From: a virus
Taxonomy: Duplodnaviria > Caudoviricetes
DNA: 58,106 nt
IMG/VR virus record: IMGVR_UViG_3300030329_004093
Coordinates: 1 to 58,106 of that record
Direction: 5' to 3' (one strand)
A program made the translations under genes and the position numbers. Positions 117-22,166 of the stretch are shown piece by piece. Numbering within the stretch: position 1 is the stretch's first letter; each line of letters opens with the position of its first letter. Below the pieces are notes generated by a model. The model saw only the letters and a program-made list of their open reading frames with translations. It was not told the origin of the DNA and searched no databases.

Positions 117-1967
117 TTAAAATTTAAAGTGAGGAGTATCGTCAGATATAGAGCCAGTTCCTCTTACTGTTCCAGATAAATTAACACCTATCATTGTATT
201 AGTATGATAATGAATACCTCCTCCTAAATATTCCATGCTTGTTGATTGCCCAGAACCATTTGAAAATGCTGTTATAACCAATCCAGCGGTACTAGTAGGT
301 TGAACTATTGTATCTATAGTAATTTCACCAGATTGATTGTCGTCATATATAGTAACTCCTCCAAAAGTAATTGTGTCATTAGATGTAGAGTTTTGAGTGA
401 CATTTAACCACAGTCTAACTCTATATGGATGTCCAATAGCAACTATTCCACCGTCAGCTCCATACCATCTATATCTACTTGCATTTAACGCAGGCGTATA
501 ATTATATCTACCACTTGGTTGAGTTGCACTTATCCACATATCATTCGTTAAAACTCCTGGACTTGTTTGCCCAGAACCATCTCTTACAAATTTTCTATCA
601 TATTCATTTGACCCGTCATCATAAGTCCATCCATTAGTTGCTGTGCTATAAGGAGAAGTGTCATGAGTAGGGTCAGTATTATCAGTATCAGAATTATAAT
701 AATTAAGCCTACTATGTATAGAATCTGAATGTGAATAATTATTTTTATTTTGGTTCCTCCATTCCGATGCTGTGCCAGCTAGTAGTCCATCACAGCTCAA
801 AGGGTTTAAACCTCCCGTTATGGAATAATTAGCCATTCCATACATATAATTTTGAGAATATATAAATCTTATTTCATTACTACCAATTTTATCGAAATCC
901 TTATTATTGGCTCCAGTTATCCATTTTCCTCCTTTTGACCAATTACCTGAATCAGTTTCAGTGTCAGGATAAAGCCATTGACCTTCGTTGTCTCCAAAAT
1001 AAAAAGTAGAATCAATTCCTGTAGTATTTCTATAACTTGGCCAACTAATCCCAGTTCCATGAGACAGATACCATACAGCATTTCTGTCAACATTCCTGTA
1101 AGAAGTGCCAGGGTAATATGCACTGATACCAAAATGACTTATAGAGCCATAAAAAAATTCGCTTGCAGTACTTCCATCCATTTTTGCACCAATATAACTT
1201 TCTGTTTTATTAGCATGAAGTATTTTAGTATGAATTGCAAAATCAGTATCATTCTTTACATGGTAATAATATGTCATAAGGGTTTCTTCATCATCGGTCC
1301 ATTCTGACAATGGTTTACTTGGAGTCCATCCATCCCAACCTCCTGCATATCTGAAAGCACTATTTTCATTGGGATGATAATAACAGTCTTCATGGCCATT
1401 CTCTACATCTTGATGTCTAAGCCATCCTAATAATTTATTTGTATAAGTATTCCAGCACAGATAAACAAAATGCCATACACCTTCATTAACTGTACCTTTA
1501 AACGTTAAAACATCATGAGCATATGTACCAGCGCTGCTATTATGACAACCAATAAGCAGTTTTAATTTATTGCCTCCATTTTCAAAATATAACTTAAATA
1601 CACCTGAATTTACGCCAGTTATATTAGACCCATTGTGATATAATACTTGGGTGGTTCCTGCGGTATTATTGTGGCTAGTTTTTTTAAACCAGAGAGCCAC
1701 TTTTTTATGATGACCTTTATACTGCATTGTAGAAGCATTGTAATAATTCCAATTATGTGCAGTACTAGAAGGTTGTACAGTCCAATCAGAAGGCTGTCCA
1801 TCATTACAATACCATCTTAACTCATTAAAGGTAGAATACATTTTACAATAATCTCCATCACCAGATAAATTTAAACTAGTAATAGGAGGGTCAGGGTCTG
1901 GTTGCATTTGCCAATCTTCTCCATAATGACTATTTGAATATGATAATATAGCAGTTTTAGAAAACAT
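117..1967 (-). CDS. Tail fibre/spike protein with N-terminal LamG/concanavalin A-like domain
   Basis: 616 aa; LamG-like motifs (VALWFK, GVWHFVYLCW, YIGAK...FFYGSISHFGI); Gly/Ser/Asn/Trp-rich; in structural operon. Confidence 0.65.
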   Translation of the reverse strand: MFSKTAILSYSNSHYGEDWQMQPDPDPPITSLNLSGDGDYCKMYSTFNELRWYCNDGQPSDWTVQPSSTAHNWNYYNASTMQYKGHHKKVALWFKKTSHNNTAGTTQVLYHNGSNITGVNSGVFKLYFENGGNKLKLLIGCHNSSAGTYAHDVLTFKGTVNEGVWHFVYLCWNTYTNKLLGWLRHQDVENGHEDCYYHPNENSAFRYAGGWDGWTPSKPLSEWTDDEETLMTYYYHVKNDTDFAIHTKILHANKTESYIGAKMDGSTASEFFYGSISHFGISAYYPGTSYRNVDRNAVWYLSHGTGISWPSYRNTTGIDSTFYFGDNEGQWLYPDTETDSGNWSKGGKWITGANNKDFDKIGSNEIRFIYSQNYMYGMANYSITGGLNPLSCDGLLAGTASEWRNQNKNNYSHSDSIHSRLNYYNSDTDNTDPTHDTSPYSTATNGWTYDDGSNEYDRKFVRDGSGQTSPGVLTNDMWISATQPSGRYNYTPALNASRYRWYGADGGIVAIGHPYRVRLWLNVTQNSTSNDTITFGGVTIYDDNQSGEITIDTIVQPTSTAGLVITAFSNGSGQSTSMEYLGGGIHYHTNTMIGVNLSGTVRGTGSISDDTPHFKF

Positions 1968-16905: not shown

Positions 16906-17620
16906 TAATTTTCTTAGGCCTTTCGGCAGCTTCAATCATATCATCTGTTAATCCTTGAAACTGAACTCCAGTAATCTGCTGAACCTTAGCTGAATTCTTA
17001 TCTTCTAAGTCAAGTATATCAGATAGTTTAAATAGAGCTTTAAGTTTAGTATCATCTTTCTCAGCAGTTTGAGCTACTATTTTAATATTTTCTAATACCA
17101 TTTTTTCACTTATTTCTAACTCTTCTAGTATAGGTTTTAATTCTTCTTTCACAGCAGTCTTAATCCTTTCTGTTTTAATTAAATTAACAGCTTTCATCCT
17201 AGCGTATCGTTTATTATTAGTAGGAAAAGCCTTAACATATGCATCCTCAGGGGATAAACCTTGTGATATATAAGTAACAAACAACTCCTCATTAGCTGTC
17301 ATATTCCTTCTGTTAGCTACTACTTGTTCAGGAGTAGAATTACCTCCAAACGAGTATATATTAGTTCTTCTATCTGTATCCATATAAGTATCTTTTGAGA
17401 CCGTAAAAGTACCAGTACATGTACCTATATAGGCCATATCTCCGTTCTTTCTAAGCATAGTACCTTTACGAAGTATCTGTATAATAGACTCATCATCTGC
17501 AAGTACCCAATCTCCTATATTGCCTTTTCTCCAGTCCTCTACGACTTTAATAGAAGGAGGTACTTCAGATAGAGTTTCATATACAATGTGATTAACTCTA
17601 TTTACCTTGTAAGTTCTCAC
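16895..17620 (-). CDS. Putative terminase small subunit
   Basis: C-terminal half has HTH-like AYVKAFP and helical LKALFKLSDIL segment typical of TerS; upstream of TerL. Confidence 0.55.
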   Translation of the reverse strand: MRTYKVNRVNHIVYETLSEVPPSIKVVEDWRKGNIGDWVLADDESIIQILRKGTMLRKNGDMAYIGTCTGTFTVSKDTYMDTDRRTNIYSFGGNSTPEQVVANRRNMTANEELFVTYISQGLSPEDAYVKAFPTNNKRYARMKAVNLIKTERIKTAVKEELKPILEELEISEKMVLENIKIVAQTAEKDDTKLKALFKLSDILDLEDKNSAKVQQITGVQFQGLTDDMIEAAERPKKINGK

Positions 17621-17856
17621 TAAGATTCTCCAACTTCATATAAGTCACCTAATAGCTTTATATCTTCATCATCCCAATAATCAGCCAAATAATCAAAGTT
17701 AGAATCTAGTGGGAGTGCTTCTCCAACTTCATCTATAACCTCAACTATATATTCAACTGTATCACTATCAGGATTGACAGCTATTTCAAGTGTATATATA
17801 AGAGTACCTTTCTTTAGTTTCTTACGTTCTTTTTTAAGTTTATCTGATTTAATCAT
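17620..17856 (-). CDS. Hypothetical protein, first gene of late operon
   Basis: 78-aa ORF, basic N-terminus and acidic C-terminus; no SD; TATATTAC 3 nt upstream. Confidence 0.5.
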   Translation of the reverse strand: MIKSDKLKKERKKLKKGTLIYTLEIAVNPDSDTVEYIVEVIDEVGEALPLDSNFDYLADYWDDEDIKLLGDLYEVGES

Positions 17857-17859
17857 GTA

Positions 17860-18300
17860 GTAATATAAGAAATGTGAATCAATTTCCCAAAAAAAATTGA
17901 TGAACTCGTATCAAAAGGGCGTAGGTTCCCCCTGATAAAAAAAATTAATTTTAAATTTCACTTAAGCCAGTACTCTAAGACCCATACCTAAGCTTATATT
18001 AAAACAATTTGTGGAACTATCGGGGACAAACCTGAACTCTATTTGAGGGGCTACCCAACTTCTGAACCTCGAAGCAGAACCATTGCAGGGGTACTTAAAG
18101 GCTGATAAATTATAAATATTACAACTTGTTCCGCATCAAATTTACTGTAGCTTAATTTAAAAACCAAATAAAAAAGGTTAACTTTCAAAAATTTGTACAA
18201 AATAATATACACACCAATTATACTTTTAAGGCCACCCAATTTCCCTTTTTTTATATGGGAATTGCGTTATAATTCATTTCAATTAGGAATAGAAAGGACG
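17860..18300. promoter_or_regulatory. Divergent control region between late (minus) and early (plus) blocks
   Basis: Strand switch; AT-rich tracts; TATAAT at ~18267; hairpin CAATTTCCC...GGGAATTG at ~18237-18265. Confidence 0.55.
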
Positions 18301-18304
18301 ACAT

Positions 18305-18646
18305 ATGTCAGATTACATCGCACTTAAACTTGAGAAGAGAGAGTGGACTTCCAAGACAACAGGTGCTTCAGGTTCCACTTATTGCTTCAACAACCAGAAC
18401 AACTCTACTATTAATTTTGGTGGTCATAGCGTATCATTGAGCATACTTGACGGTACTACTCAACAAGCCAAAGAGCCAAAAGTATTTGGTTGGGTTAATG
18501 AGATGACTGATGCACAGTATGAGGCATTTATAGAAGAATATGGTGACACAGTATATATTCATACACCAACAAAAGAAATGATTACTCAACAAGAGTATGA
18601 TGAACTTGGAGTTGAAGAAACTGTACAACCAACAGCATCATTTTAG
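18305..18646 (+). CDS. Hypothetical early protein
   Basis: 113 aa, SD AAAGGA; first plus-strand gene. Confidence 0.6.
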   Translation: MSDYIALKLEKREWTSKTTGASGSTYCFNNQNNSTINFGGHSVSLSILDGTTQQAKEPKVFGWVNEMTDAQYEAFIEEYGDTVYIHTPTKEMITQQEYDELGVEETVQPTASF

Positions 18647-18822
18647 TTAGATGAGCCATACATTGTCATAGGTAGCAGGTGATAGAGTTACCGTTATGTA
18701 TCATCTTTGAGGGTTTAGATAGTGTATTTCCACGCTATCTATTCCCTCGCATACTCTACTATATATATAAATAAACAGCCCCTAAACAAGGGCATATTTA
18801 AAAGAATTAGATGTAAACAATT

Positions 18823-19590
18823 ATGTGGTGGTATCGCATCGCATATAAAACACAAGGATAAGTGTAGTAATACATAAAAGTAGCAACATGTTACAGTGTT
18901 GTAGCGCCTGTAAAGGTCCAGAGATACAAGCCTTGTTCGTTAATGTCTCAAACTCAGTGCCTAACGGTGAGAGTGACAGATGTTAGTACCCAAGATGGTA
19001 ATTGGGTTGAGTGTGGTGACACACAATAGATTAAAAGGTAGGAGTTTAAGCTGAACTATGGTGGTAAGGCTGTTCTCCATTGTTAAGGTTGTATGTCTCG
19101 AGTGATTGAGATGTATATAATTATGCCTGAAACAAATTGTTTGATGATACCAGTCATTAAATAAAGGTATTGAGTGTAGTATTTATTGTCCCAAAAGGAT
19201 AGTAAGCTACTTGTTAAGCACTCGAACCAACTTGCCCGTTAATTAACTTAACTAAATAGCCTAATCGGCTAACAATTAAATGAATAACGATAAAAAACGT
19301 AAAAGACTTAACACGATTAGGAGCATAGGGCTCTAATACCTCACACATTGTGAATGAGGTGCATCAAAGACCACAAGTCGGAGATGTTTTGTGATGAAAG
19401 ACACTAGTAGTGGGTCGCTCCTGCTATCTGCGTTTATTAGTCGCTGAAATAACCTAATCGATAAGAGTGATAGTCTATAACTATTGAGCCTGTTGTGATA
19501 CTAGTGTGCAAACATTAGTGGATACGAGACAAACCCTCGGGAACTTAACTCAAAAGACACAACATTAAAGAGTATAATCTCAACTCTCAA
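18823..19590 (+). ncRNA. GOLLD-like large structured RNA (boundaries approximate)
   Basis: ~770 nt ORF-free with many hairpins. GAGTGTAGTATTTATTGTCCCAAAAGGATAGTAAGCTAC...GCACTC and the 3' end TACTAGTGTGCAAACATTAGTGGATA...AAAGAGTATAATCTCAACTCT resemble my recollection of the conserved GOLLD 3' domain; phage location near a tRNA fits. Confidence 0.65.
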
Positions 19591-19614
19591 ATTTATTTAA
19601 AAGGAGGGAATGCA

Positions 19615-20046
19615 ATGTCAGATAAATGTATCATTTGTGATGTAGATGGCACTGTAGCACTAATGAATGGTAAAAGAACACCATTTGAATGGGATAAAGT
19701 GATGTTAGATGACCCTAATAATTGGGTTATATCATTAATAAGAGGATATTTATCATCAAATCCTGGTGTTAACCTGATATTCTTGTCAGGTAGAAGCGAA
19801 GAATGTTATGGACTAACAGATAAATGGCTTCAAGATTGGTTTGGAGATATTAAATATTCATTATTTATGAGACCACTAGACCAATTGTATGAACCAGATG
19901 CTAAAATTAAGTATGAATTGTATTATAAACATATCAGACCTAATTATAATGTACAATTTGTAGTCGATGACAGAAAACAAGTAGTTGAGATGTGGCGAAG
20001 AGTAGCAGGTCTACCAGTTGCTCAAGTTGCAGAAGGTAACTTTTAA
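19615..20046 (+). CDS. HAD-family polynucleotide 3'-phosphatase (T4 PNKP/PseT phosphatase-domain-like)
   Basis: DVDGT, SGR, LFMRP, K, VVDDRKQVVEMWR, QVAEGNF motifs; no kinase domain. Confidence 0.85.
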   Translation: MSDKCIICDVDGTVALMNGKRTPFEWDKVMLDDPNNWVISLIRGYLSSNPGVNLIFLSGRSEECYGLTDKWLQDWFGDIKYSLFMRPLDQLYEPDAKIKYELYYKHIRPNYNVQFVVDDRKQVVEMWRRVAGLPVAQVAEGNF

Positions 20047-20062
20047 CTAACACGAGGTGAAG

Positions 20063-20188
20063 ATGATTAAATTCTTCAATAAAGACCCATTACATTTAAT
20101 ATCAATATATTTAAATATAGTACTAAATATGTTGTTAATAACAGGTATCATATGTTTATTTAAATGGTGTTGGTCTCTCGTGCTATAA
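20063..20188 (+). CDS. Small membrane peptide (41 aa)
   Basis: SD GAGGTG; hydrophobic MIKFFNKDPLHLISIYLNIVLNMLLITGIICLFKWCWSLVL. Confidence 0.45.
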   Translation: MIKFFNKDPLHLISIYLNIVLNMLLITGIICLFKWCWSLVL

Positions 20189-20272
20189 ATATTGTCTAAT
20201 GACAATGTTGTGGCTCGTAAGACAGAAAGGCTCGTTCTTAATTGAGTGGGCCTTTCAAACATAAGGAGGAAT

Positions 20273-20515
20273 ATGAAATTAAAAAGAAAATTTGAATCAT
20301 TAATCACTATTCACGGTGAGATATTAAACAGCAATTGCCCTGAATGTGATGGAGAAGGTGTATTTTTAGATGATTATACTAATGCAAGTGGTGGTGAAAT
20401 GATACCAAGACTATGTGGATATTGTGATGGTGATGGTGTTATTACTGAAGATAAGGTTGATGCTGTAAATTATGATAAAGAAGGACAACCTCATATAATT
20501 TATAAAAATAAATAA
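20273..20515 (+). CDS. DnaJ-type zinc-finger protein
   Basis: Two CxxCxGxG repeats (CPECDGEG, CGYCDGDG); SD AAGGAGG before ATG 20273. Confidence 0.65.
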   Translation: MKLKRKFESLITIHGEILNSNCPECDGEGVFLDDYTNASGGEMIPRLCGYCDGDGVITEDKVDAVNYDKEGQPHIIYKNK

Positions 20516-20529
20516 AAGGAGTACGAGCT

Positions 20530-20985
20530 ATGGGTATGGATATAAGTGGTAAAAATCCTGTAAGTAAAACAGGTGATTATTTTAGAAATAATTGTTGGTG
20601 GTGGAGACCATTATGGAGTTATTGCTATCATGTAGCACCTGATTTAATAGATGAAGATACATATGTAGGTGGTGGCTATAATGATGGGTGTGGATTAGAT
20701 GCAAAAGGCGCTGCCAAATTAGCTGTCATATTAGAGACTAAAATAGCAGAAGGACATACTAAAATATGGAAAAAAGAAAGAGATTTATATCTTGATTCTT
20801 TAGAAGATGAGAATTGTGGTGTATGTAATAATAACAATAGAGGGCATAAGAAAAAGAAAGATTGCTTTGCTTGTAAAGGTAAAGGAACAAGAGATGCCTG
20901 GGAGAAATCTTATCCATTTGATGTAGAGAATGTAGAGAATTTTGCTAAATTTCTTATAGATAGTGGTGGATTTGAAATATGGTAA
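20530..20985 (+). CDS. Conserved phage protein with CxxC zinc ribbon
   Basis: YFRNNCWWWRPLW, CGVC...CFACKGKG, GGFEIW C-terminus. Confidence 0.65.
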   Translation: MGMDISGKNPVSKTGDYFRNNCWWWRPLWSYCYHVAPDLIDEDTYVGGGYNDGCGLDAKGAAKLAVILETKIAEGHTKIWKKERDLYLDSLEDENCGVCNNNNRGHKKKKDCFACKGKGTRDAWEKSYPFDVENVENFAKFLIDSGGFEIW

Positions 20986-20994
20986 AGTAATTAT

Positions 20995-21065
20995 AGCGGA
21001 GGAGTGAAACGGTTCACGCTTGGCTCATAACCAAGAAATATTGGGTTCGACTCCCATCTCCGCAA
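20995..21065 (+). tRNA. tRNA-Met(CAT), initiator-like, atypical
   Basis: Acceptor (A)GCGGAG/CTCCGC(A), D arm GTGA/TCAC, anticodon arm CTTGG-CTCATAA-CCAAG, T loop TTCGACT; no encoded CCA. Confidence 0.85.
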
Positions 21066-21660
21066 CAAAATTGAGTATGATTAGCGTCATACAAAATAGT
21101 TGTCAGGTGGACAAAATACTCACGACTGTTAAACATTGGTAGTCCTAGGATGCCATAGAGTACATCTCACGTATTGCCACAACTCCTGAAACAGGATGAA
21201 CTAACTACCTAGACGATTTATCGACTAAACTGTTAGCAGTCTTTAAGCACAGATATGTGTAAACCGCAGTTGATTCCTTCTTAGACTGGCTGTGGACTAG
21301 AATTATATAATTGAGAGTCAAGATATAAGCCTTGTTCAATATTACGAGATTAGTATATTGATGAAAAATGGTGTAGTGTACTTAATTGCCCACCTGTAAT
21401 GATGAAGTTGGGTCATGACCTGAATGCCAGTTGAGCATAGTATTTTCAACTCTGGTCATCAGATAAAGACTGGCAGCCATGCAATAAAACTAGACACGAG
21501 TGGCGGTCTAGCACGACTCTCATATTATTGAGAGCCAATAACTGGTCCTCCTCAAGAGCCACCTCCAACAAAGCTGAGGTGAGAGGGTAAATAAGTCCTT
21601 ATGAAGTACCTGAAAATGAACTGGTGAAGAAGGCAAAGGAATATGTGAGGCTCTCATACA

Positions 21661-21883
21661 TTTGAGGGAGAGTATATATCGTAAGAATATACAACAATGT
21701 TAATAAGACCCAAGTTCACAGATATTATTAGCTTTGTGTTTCACTCCCTCAATAAACTTATAAACCGAGGGATAGGAGGGAGATATACCAGGTACAGAGG
21801 AAGCGCTACTTAGTAGCAAACCAGAAGTCGCTGTATATCGAGGAAAAAGTGTAGGTTTATATAAATTAGTTTGAGGGAGAGTA
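21661..21883 (+). repeat. 14-nt direct repeat TTTGAGGGAGAGTA (21661-21674 and 21870-21883)
   Basis: Exact match read from sequence. Confidence 0.8.
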
Positions 21884-21963
21884 ACGTGGATAGAGAGAAC
21901 TTAGGTTCTGTGAGGGGAGGGTGCAAATCCTTCGTGTAAAACTAATAAAATTGTATACAACAG

Positions 21964-22031
21964 ATAAAGCAGGTGAGCTTGGATAGCACTCATCGCGTTG
22001 AGGAGGGTTCGATTCCTTTAACCTGCTTTAT
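21964..22031 (+). ncRNA. Minimal tRNA-like element
   Basis: 11-bp closing stem ATAAAGCAGGT/ACCTGCTTTAT, T arm GAGGG-TTCGATT-CCTTT, small arms GCTTGGATAGC and CTCATCGCGTTGAG. Confidence 0.5.
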
Positions 22032-22166
22032 TGATTAAAGAATTACAGGTAGTTGCCGTAATGAATCTAGAGTCCTGTAATAACAGAGATAGTTTAGAAA
22101 TAAACTGTAATGTCAATGAGGGTAGGTAGTCGGATACTTACCCTCAAAATTTAAAAGGAGAGTCAC

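Follow-up and report, generated by a model that had tools for sequence, protein, structure and literature searches.

A GOLLD RNA gene without one consensus junction hairpin in the genome of an uncultured marine phage

GOLLD RNAs are phage-associated, often encoded near tRNAs and able to form cages, and their function is not known, according to the available text of 10.1101/2024.12.08.627333, which credits the family (RF02032) to Weinberg et al. 2009. As described there, GOLLD assembles without protein into closed dihedral cages, in which the 3' domains form the rings and the half-shell contacts, the 5' domains form the caps and a variable linker points inward. In the available text of that preprint and of PMC12990946, GOLLD cages are known for two RNAs only. 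The first, env-38, is an 833-nucleotide (nt) RNA from a marine metagenome that forms a 14-mer (PDB 9MEE); the second, the 700-nt GOLLD of Streptococcus agalactiae, forms a 12-mer (PDB 9L0R), and its 3' domain alone gives mainly 10-mers (PMC12990946). Copy number is stated in the same source to depend on P21b and other elements. Here we describe a GOLLD RNA in the genome of an uncultured marine phage, IMG/VR record IMGVR_UViG_3300030329_004093, the whole of which (58,106 bp, rated 100% complete) we call the window. An earlier note made from the letters of this DNA had placed a GOLLD-like RNA at 18823-19590. Its account of the family as phage-associated, near tRNAs, cage-forming and of function not known agrees with the available text of 10.1101/2024.12.08.627333, and the conserved extent that we found, about 18825-19586, differs from its coordinates by a few bases.

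Judged by its sequence, 18825-19586 on the + strand is a genuine GOLLD RNA gene, made up of a 5' domain of ~340 nt, an A-rich variable linker and a 3' domain of ~420 nt. Nothing argues against its membership of the family, and we regard the overall explanation headed by this identity as very nearly certain. The whole window was scanned with Rfam 15 at gathering thresholds, RF02032 being a model of the conserved 3' domain only. Two matches were obtained, GOLLD and a tRNA at 20995-21065 (46.2 bits). The earlier note had suggested a search with the Rfam models for GOLLD and for ROOL. The GOLLD model aligned to 19166-19586 (+) over model positions 1-416 of 416, with 192.7 bits (gathering 150) and an E value of 8.3e-53; the ROOL model gave no match to the GOLLD region at E up to 1. 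The RF02032 match was found on the + strand only, composition alone has no support as the cause of the score, and a search of 14 control genomes with the same model returned no match. ROOL is likewise a large phage-borne, cage-forming RNA found near tRNAs (10.1101/2024.12.08.627333, available text), but its sequence and fold are unrelated to those of the window RNA. At gathering the whole window gave no ROOL match, and a permissive Rfam scan of 17600-21200 (E up to 1) gave neither ROOL nor any other family beyond GOLLD and tRNA. When 18647-19614 was compared by blastn with 50,697 GenBank phage records no match was found, which means that cultured phages hold no close copy and says nothing on family membership.

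The gene occupies a stretch without an open reading frame (ORF), as the earlier note had seen: ~770 nt in a packed genome. ORF 18305-18646 ends 968 nt before the start codon of ORF 19615-20046, and between them the longest ORF in any frame has 51 amino acids (aa; per frame of 18647-19614, 31, 51 and 32 aa on the + strand and 38, 39 and 44 aa on the - strand). With ORFs of at least 50 aa picked greedily by length, 58 ORFs covered 93.5% of the window, and the uncovered gap at 18878-19614 (737 nt) was the second-largest, the largest being 20986-22166. Folded as RNA, 18825-19590 gave -212.1 kcal/mol against -181.8 +/- 10.6 for dinucleotide shuffles (z -2.87), with 0 of 20 shuffles folding as well. 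The G+C content of the GOLLD stretch is 38.0%, compared with 32.0% for the whole window. The ORF-free stretch 18825-19590 is more than chance. All six stems named by the earlier note are present, and in the covariance-model alignment five of them are Rfam GOLLD consensus pairs: GAGTG/CACTC around the CAAAA loop, ACCTCA/TGAGGT, TACTAGTG/CATTAGTG, TGTTGTG/CACAACA and the terminal GAGT-ATAATCTCA-ACTC hairpin. The remaining stem, ACCCAA/TTGGGT, is formed by 18990-18995 and 19004-19009 in the 5' domain; L185 and L006, the closest two homologues, have ACATCA/TGATGT and ACACCA/TGGTGT in its place.

The alignment of the 3' domain begins with a long hairpin bearing the CAAAA loop, followed by the A-rich linker (19226-19300). 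Inside the linker we found a small hairpin, UAGCC-UAAUC-GGCUA, at 19257-19271, and no embedded tRNA, ARAGORN calling only the tRNA at 20996. With one exception the consensus helices of the domain are present, including the long-range pseudoknot and the terminal hairpin. The pseudoknot (19311-19320 with 19451-19460) keeps 8 of its 10 pairs, and its two unpaired positions are likewise unpaired in four of four relatives. The terminal hairpin (19570-19586) carries the loop AUAAUCUCA, the family consensus being RUAAUCUCA. The exception lies in the consensus three-way junction, from which the second hairpin is deleted; it spans 17 model positions (about 246-262) and comes after the first CGCAA-type hairpin. 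An identical 17-position deletion was found in the closest relative (L083), and in L084 the junction is shortened. Judged from its position in the Rfam consensus, rather than by comparison with the published figure, the deleted hairpin appears to be P21b.

For the 5' domain, the loci for comparison came from a search of IMG/VR with a pattern of the 3'-end motif, which gave at least 119 stretches. Of 200 loci fetched, 28 contained sequence homologous to a profile built from seven 5' regions (E below 1e-3). Fourteen loci were rescanned with Rfam, and in 13 of these an above-gathering GOLLD 3' domain lay directly downstream of the 5' homology, L185 being the one below gathering; the 14 supply 14 of the 20 non-window rows of a MAFFT alignment of 21 sequences (A1). 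A profile from 20 other viral 5' domains, with the window left out, matched 18810-19211 once (E 1.5e-23), and a profile restricted to 15 distant 5' domains matched 18853-18964 (E 1.2e-4). Conservation with the distant copies L185 and L146, as seen by nhmmer, starts at about 18825, two bases from the start given in the earlier note. The 5' end of the gene is uncertain by about 40 nt, and its 3' end is that of the Rfam model.

RNAalifold predicted 20 pairs on A1, 17 of them changing on both sides. We also mapped the window's own centroid fold, together with a loop-to-downstream helix, onto the alignment. These 103 pairs were formed in 62.5% of cells, compared with 51.0% in shuffles, and their covariation score was 0.247 against 0.108 for shuffles (0 of 500 reached 0.247) and 0.056-0.091 for slid partners. 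Five helices (1, 2, 4, 6 and 17) were well supported, with 79-100% pairing across the 21 sequences. Helix 2 is a pseudoknot in which loop bases 18831-18835 (GUAUC) pair with 18923-18927 (GAUAC) in 21 of 21 sequences, three of its five pairs changing on both sides. All five pairs of helix 4 (18862-18875) change on both sides and 91.4% of cells are paired; in helix 17 (19080-19089 with 19127-19137) seven of nine pairs do so and 79.3% are paired. The other helices of the single-sequence fold, 31-57% paired in A1, are not claimed as conserved. Both GOLLD domains hold conserved, covarying structure and are under selection for structure.

In an index of public sequencing runs, part of 18300-20100 was present in 20 runs of 10 studies, all of them marine or aquatic metagenomes and eight of them RNA libraries. 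Contigs of four RNA runs from three studies were mapped onto 17600-21300. Marine metatranscriptome contigs cover 18835-19560 (X6 and X9), 18978-19556 (X10) and 18978-19559 (X16), and X6 has one further contig at 17668-17840. Such contigs give presence, without strand, ends or level; transcription of GOLLD as a discrete RNA is likely, not proven. We rejected the contig ends at 18835/18836 and 19556-19560 as RNA ends because the variants share sequence there (the first hairpin and the conserved terminal motif) and assembly graphs branch. Nor do we claim more RNA for GOLLD than for its neighbours, the absent contig cover over 18305-18646 and 19615-20046 being no finding. Among the differences of the variant contigs from the window, 22 positions were listed. 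Six of these make up three compensatory pairs (U18889A with G18896U, C19099U with G19108A, and A19470G with U19484C), eight keep a standard pair, two break one and six are unpaired. The A19470G/U19484C pair lies in an Rfam consensus helix and the C19099U/G19108A pair inside helix 17. Pairing was judged on the window's minimum-energy fold, which depends on the sequence itself, and is used as supporting evidence only.

The window copy has in common with the GOLLD family a full-length 3' model, a variable 5' domain and linker, a phage genome with a nearby tRNA and a length of ~760 nt. It differs from the family in being without one three-way-junction hairpin and without a tRNA inside the linker, and its nearest tRNA is 1.4 kb off, with three ORFs between the tRNA and GOLLD. 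Compared by published description, it shares with env-38 a marine origin, a tRNA-Met neighbourhood and the two-domain architecture, and is about 70 nt shorter. In the available description env-38 lies downstream of a Met-tRNA, whereas the tRNA-Met of the window lies downstream of GOLLD. The presumed P21b is missing in the window, while the P21b loop of env-38 is described as one of two self-kissing half-shell contacts. The S. agalactiae GOLLD is, in the available text of PMC12990946, without P21b, as the window copy appears to be; it is also without P9, P11a-c and part of P7 and P10, and sits in a Firmicute chromosome.

On this comparison we propose that GOLLD would be transcribed rightward with the phage replication and recombination genes, and that the RNA would fold into two separate domains, 5' and 3'. 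By analogy with the solved GOLLD structures, about 10-14 copies would self-assemble, with no protein needed, into a closed dihedral cage of two layers, in which the 3' domains would form the ring and the 5' domains the caps, with the linker facing the interior. If the missing hairpin is taken as P21b, fewer than 14 copies would be expected, most likely 12, because P21b is also missing in the 12-mer of S. agalactiae. This 762-nt RNA probably forms a cage, and probably one of fewer than 14 copies. With low confidence, we suggest that the cage might hold or shield a component of translation or the tRNA system during lytic growth; the evidence offered for such a role is only that of tRNA genes near or inside GOLLD, and storage or shielding of tRNA or translation components by a GOLLD cage is a hypothesis already in print, in the literature as available to us.

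The alternative that survives best is that the RNA is a true GOLLD by descent but acts as a monomer, or with protein or ribosome partners, and not as an RNA-only cage. One consensus hairpin is missing here from the junction whose loops join the half-shells in the 14-mer, as described in the sources above, and pull-downs of GOLLD with ribosomes are mentioned in the available text of 10.1101/2024.12.08.627333. Yet the S. agalactiae RNA still forms its 12-mer without P21b, and 10-mers from the 3' domain alone (PMC12990946, available text), and the window copy retains both the terminal loop and the long-range pseudoknot, by which the 3' domain is organised. We consider a monomer or a partnered RNA unlikely, though it deserves some weight, and prefer the RNA-only cage.

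We next looked at how widely GOLLD occurs in phages of this type. IMG/VR contains at least 598 relatives of the large terminase, of which we retrieved the 80 best; the whole records of 75 were searched with the Rfam model. GOLLD (RF02032) was present in three of the 75 (L006, L071 and L079) and in none of the 12 terminase relatives that are at least 90% complete; nhmmer adds L004, in which GOLLD is cut by the contig end. Thirty-nine of the 80 loci reach at least 2 kb past the small terminase and so cover the site, and three of these 39 have GOLLD. A homologue of the 113-aa ORF upstream of GOLLD (ORF113) was found in four of the 39, and one of the phosphatase encoded downstream (ORF 19615-20046) in three. 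These neighbours are rare too, and therefore the whole operon head is a variable region. The gene order in L006 is that of the window (ORF113, GOLLD, phosphatase, ORF89, ORF151). GOLLD is absent from L005 (91% terminase identity), where a 547-nt spacer containing a 64-aa ORF lies between ORF113 and the phosphatase. GOLLD is an optional accessory in this phage lineage.

Several observations weigh against the proposed workings of this RNA as a discrete, structured and cage-forming molecule, not against its membership of the family. The phage type can do without GOLLD, which is absent from 72 of the 75 relatives. Helices 5, 8, 9 and 14 of the window's own fold are only 31-37% paired in the MAFFT alignment, and may be lineage-specific or misaligned. 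Contigs of RNA libraries may include DNA through carry-over, and the copy number given above is guessed from the absence of a single hairpin. We identified neither a promoter nor a terminator for GOLLD. A scan for sigma-70-like sites gave 11, against 17.7 expected, with none positioned to drive GOLLD; TATAAATAAACAGC, a motif before GOLLD, has no second exact copy in the window, and its 29 matches at up to 3 mismatches compare with 23.9 expected; and no repeated intergenic phage promoter motif was found within the window. Finally, GOLLD ends 29 nt before the next ORF, which is preceded by an AAGGAGG site, and so may be cotranscribed with that ORF.

This spacing, only 29 nt to the ATG of ORF 19615-20046 with no strong terminator between, would also suit a long structured 5' leader that regulates the phosphatase operon in cis. 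Such a leader is very unlikely. The phosphatase of L005 is preceded by a spacer without GOLLD, the GOLLD family adjoins many different genes, and no phosphatase homologue was found by tblastn (E 1e-3) in the 119 other GOLLD-motif loci listed; GOLLD is therefore not tied to the phosphatase. The phosphatase used as bait retrieved one distant locus (L002, 32% identity), without GOLLD. Still less likely is a decaying, non-functional remnant, which could be supposed from the rarity in the lineage (three of 75 relatives), the one missing consensus hairpin and a score of 192.7 that is below those of the best viral copies (up to 304.9). The RF02032 match, however, is full-length and above gathering; L083 is without the same hairpin and its many other substitutions keep pairs; 14 of the 16 natural changes at paired positions are pair-preserving; and the stretch is present in RNA libraries. 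That the stretch encodes small proteins instead has a negligible chance, since the short ORFs that are present (32 aa at 18888-18986 on the + strand, 39 and 44 aa on the - strand) face an alignment in which L006 has gaps of 2, 1, 7, 1, 1 and 10 nt across 18888-18986, with no frame kept, and a conservation that is accounted for by the Rfam and covariation evidence. A GOLLD RNA gene is the reading that we retain.

The window shows the family context of a complete viral record with terminase, portal and head genes and a tRNA-Met nearby. This tRNA lies 1.4 kb downstream of GOLLD on the same strand, in agreement with the proximity to tRNAs on which the earlier note had remarked. Among 121 listed IMG/VR loci with the GOLLD 3' motif, only a sample of which was verified with the covariance model, a tRNA was found within 2 kb in 55, and tRNA-Met was the commonest nearest tRNA (14 loci). 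Nearness of GOLLD to tRNA genes is general. As a separate observation, ARAGORN called tRNAs inside the 750-nt GOLLD span in 13 of the 121, including L201, L187 and L132. The in-span calls include stop-reading anticodons, tta (L201), cta (L187) and tca (L132). GOLLD RNAs with an embedded tRNA are already known; the calls made here are either candidate tRNAs or mistaken GOLLD helices.

Table 1. Coordinates of GOLLD, its parts and other features in the window
Feature	Position	Strand	Basis
Assigned GOLLD RNA gene, whole conserved extent, ~762 nt	18825..19586	+	Rfam match, 5' profile, nhmmer, RNA contigs
GOLLD 5' domain (variable 'cap' domain)	18825..19165	+	Leave-out profile, downstream 3' domains, covariation
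First 5'-domain hairpin, GGUG-GUAUCG-CAUC	18827..18840	+	Helix 1, 87.6% paired in A1
Hairpin GUGUA-G.UAAU-ACAU, conserved loop AGYAAY	18862..18875	+	Helix 4
Short helix	near 18906-18917	+	Among the five covarying 5' helices
Helix UUGUUAAGGU/GCCUGAAACAA enclosing hairpin 19088-19119	19080..19137	+	Helix 17
GOLLD 3' domain (conserved 'ring' domain)	19166..19586	+	RF02032 alignment
Variable A-rich linker of the 3' model	19226..19300	+	Unpaired model columns
Upstream ORF, 113 aa (ORF113), no family	18305..18646	+	Domain and PHROGs scans
Two hairpins between upstream ORF and GOLLD	18709..18793	+	Sequence; terminator-like scan lists the second
HAD-type phosphatase domain of polynucleotide kinase-phosphatase (PNKP), 143 aa	19615..20046	+	PF25109 HAD_PNKP, E 1.7e-40; phrog_505, E 6e-45
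tRNA-Met (CAT)	20996..21064	+	ARAGORN; Rfam tRNA, 46.2 bits
Unclassified structured RNA candidate, ~240 nt	21070-21312	+	Conservation, RNAalifold
Further ORF-free 854 nt	21313-22166	+	Fold z -3.07, 0/20 shuffles as good
3743-aa ORF, 19% of genome	33591-44822	-	No family match

To the left of GOLLD, the - strand encodes the small and large terminase, a P22-like portal and a head protein. The + block that starts at about 18300 contains GOLLD, the HAD-type PNKP phosphatase, tRNA-Met, an AAA_24 ATPase, a DnaB-like helicase, a Gam-like protein and a RusA-like resolvase. With this gene content, 'head of the early region', as the earlier note had put it, is a fair description, the timing being inferred from that content. 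The phosphatase stands alone without a kinase part, an RNA-repair-type enzyme between GOLLD and the tRNA. Of the two hairpins between ORF113 and GOLLD, one (GAGGG...CCCUC) lies at 18709-18749 and the other (GCCCCUAAACAAGGGC) at 18778-18793; they are putative terminator or processing signals, possibly of the upstream gene. The arrangement of the long hairpin followed by CUCGC and TATAAAYAAACAGC after the ORF113 stop (18709-18779) is common to the window and the GOLLD-less L005, and the hairpin with TATAAAYAAACAGC is unique within the window.

In another GOLLD locus, L178, we found a Pistol self-cleaving ribozyme (RF02679) at 837-912 (-), with 69.4 bits against a gathering threshold of 34.5. The GOLLD 5' domain of L178 (427-826, -) follows it directly, which suggests that in some phages the 5' end of GOLLD is processed by a ribozyme. 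No ribozyme was found upstream of the window GOLLD by Rfam (17600-21200, E up to 1).

The nearest cultured terminases, those of Lentibacter ICBM2, Roseobacter CRP-5 and Vibrio ICP2, are 25-28% identical to that of the window. Host assignment from genome bins was rejected: the terminase relatives are labelled Poseidoniales, Dehalococcoidia and Methanosarcinales, which are mutually inconsistent and probably binning artefacts. We name no host because these labels conflict.

The earlier note had also spoken of a phage with a virion RNA polymerase. This was not supported, as the 3743-aa ORF on the - strand has no recognisable RNA polymerase domain. Compared with PHROGs it gave no match at E 0.001, the best being E 0.16 when the limit was raised to 5, and the whole ORF matched no Pfam family and no PDB sequence. 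Residues 801-2600 had no tblastn match in the 50,697 GenBank phage records, and for residues 900-2900 the best ESM Atlas score was 0.79, below the level that counts. Among five near-complete relatives with terminases 70-88% identical, the central 2001 residues were recognisable in one, inside a 3405-aa frame, a degree of conservation that is not usually seen for a catalytic polymerase core. The ORF might still encode a very divergent polymerase; its product is a giant, fast-evolving protein with no assigned role.

The largest ORF-free gap of the window, 20986-22166, runs from tRNA-Met through a further 1.1 kb (21065-22166; 39% G+C) with no ORF over 45 aa. No Rfam family was found in 21065-22166 at E up to 5 beyond a weak match to tRNA-Sec (18.5 bits, E 1.3), which is a tRNA-like cloverleaf with the T-loop GGUUCGAUUCC at 21966-22029; ARAGORN made no tRNA call there. 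The first part, 21070-21312, contains a hairpin with the loop UUAGCG and the motifs AAAUAGUU, GUCCUAGG, AACAGGA and AGUCUUUAA...AGACU, and is conserved in relatives more widely than GOLLD, including GOLLD-less ones. A motif scan for it gave 21 IMG/VR stretches, of which about 19 were homologous and two chance-like in the alignment. RNAalifold on 15 sequences predicted 30 pairs, 18 of them changing on both sides, and G-U pairs in the alignment favour the + strand; its folding energy is unremarkable (z -0.72). Parts of 21313-22166 are conserved in L006, L007 and L010. The region 21065-22166 looks like at least one unclassified structured RNA. Tentatively, and with the odds against it, GOLLD might be part of an RNA-rich accessory module (GOLLD, tRNA-Met and the 1.1-kb RNA region) that heads the rightward operon. 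In this reading the covarying RNA of ~240 nt would be specific to the phage lineage, and the further 850 nt, which match GOLLD in how well they fold, would add to the module. If this were true, and these RNAs worked together with GOLLD, perhaps as the cargo or the partners of a smaller, P21b-less cage, the locus would offer a natural system for the role of the GOLLD cage.

Earlier work had established the GOLLD family, its link to phages, its marine members and its cages, and 806 non-redundant GOLLDs from bacterial genomes and GenBank phages are counted in the available text of the Kretsch preprint (10.1101/2024.12.08.627333). The window copy does little to refine how the family is defined. 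A full-text literature search found no description of GOLLD in this phage lineage, which is weak evidence, supplements and other journals being outside its scope. What is new is a GOLLD member in a marine phage lineage, of a sub-type without one junction hairpin; this is useful, not surprising. The phage type is small (58 kb), complete and abundant in the sea, and gives natural presence/absence pairs with the same flanking genes (the window and L006 versus L005). Its GOLLD is visible in the environmental RNA libraries of three studies, and a sub-type apparently without one of the loops that join the half-shells bears on how cage size is set.

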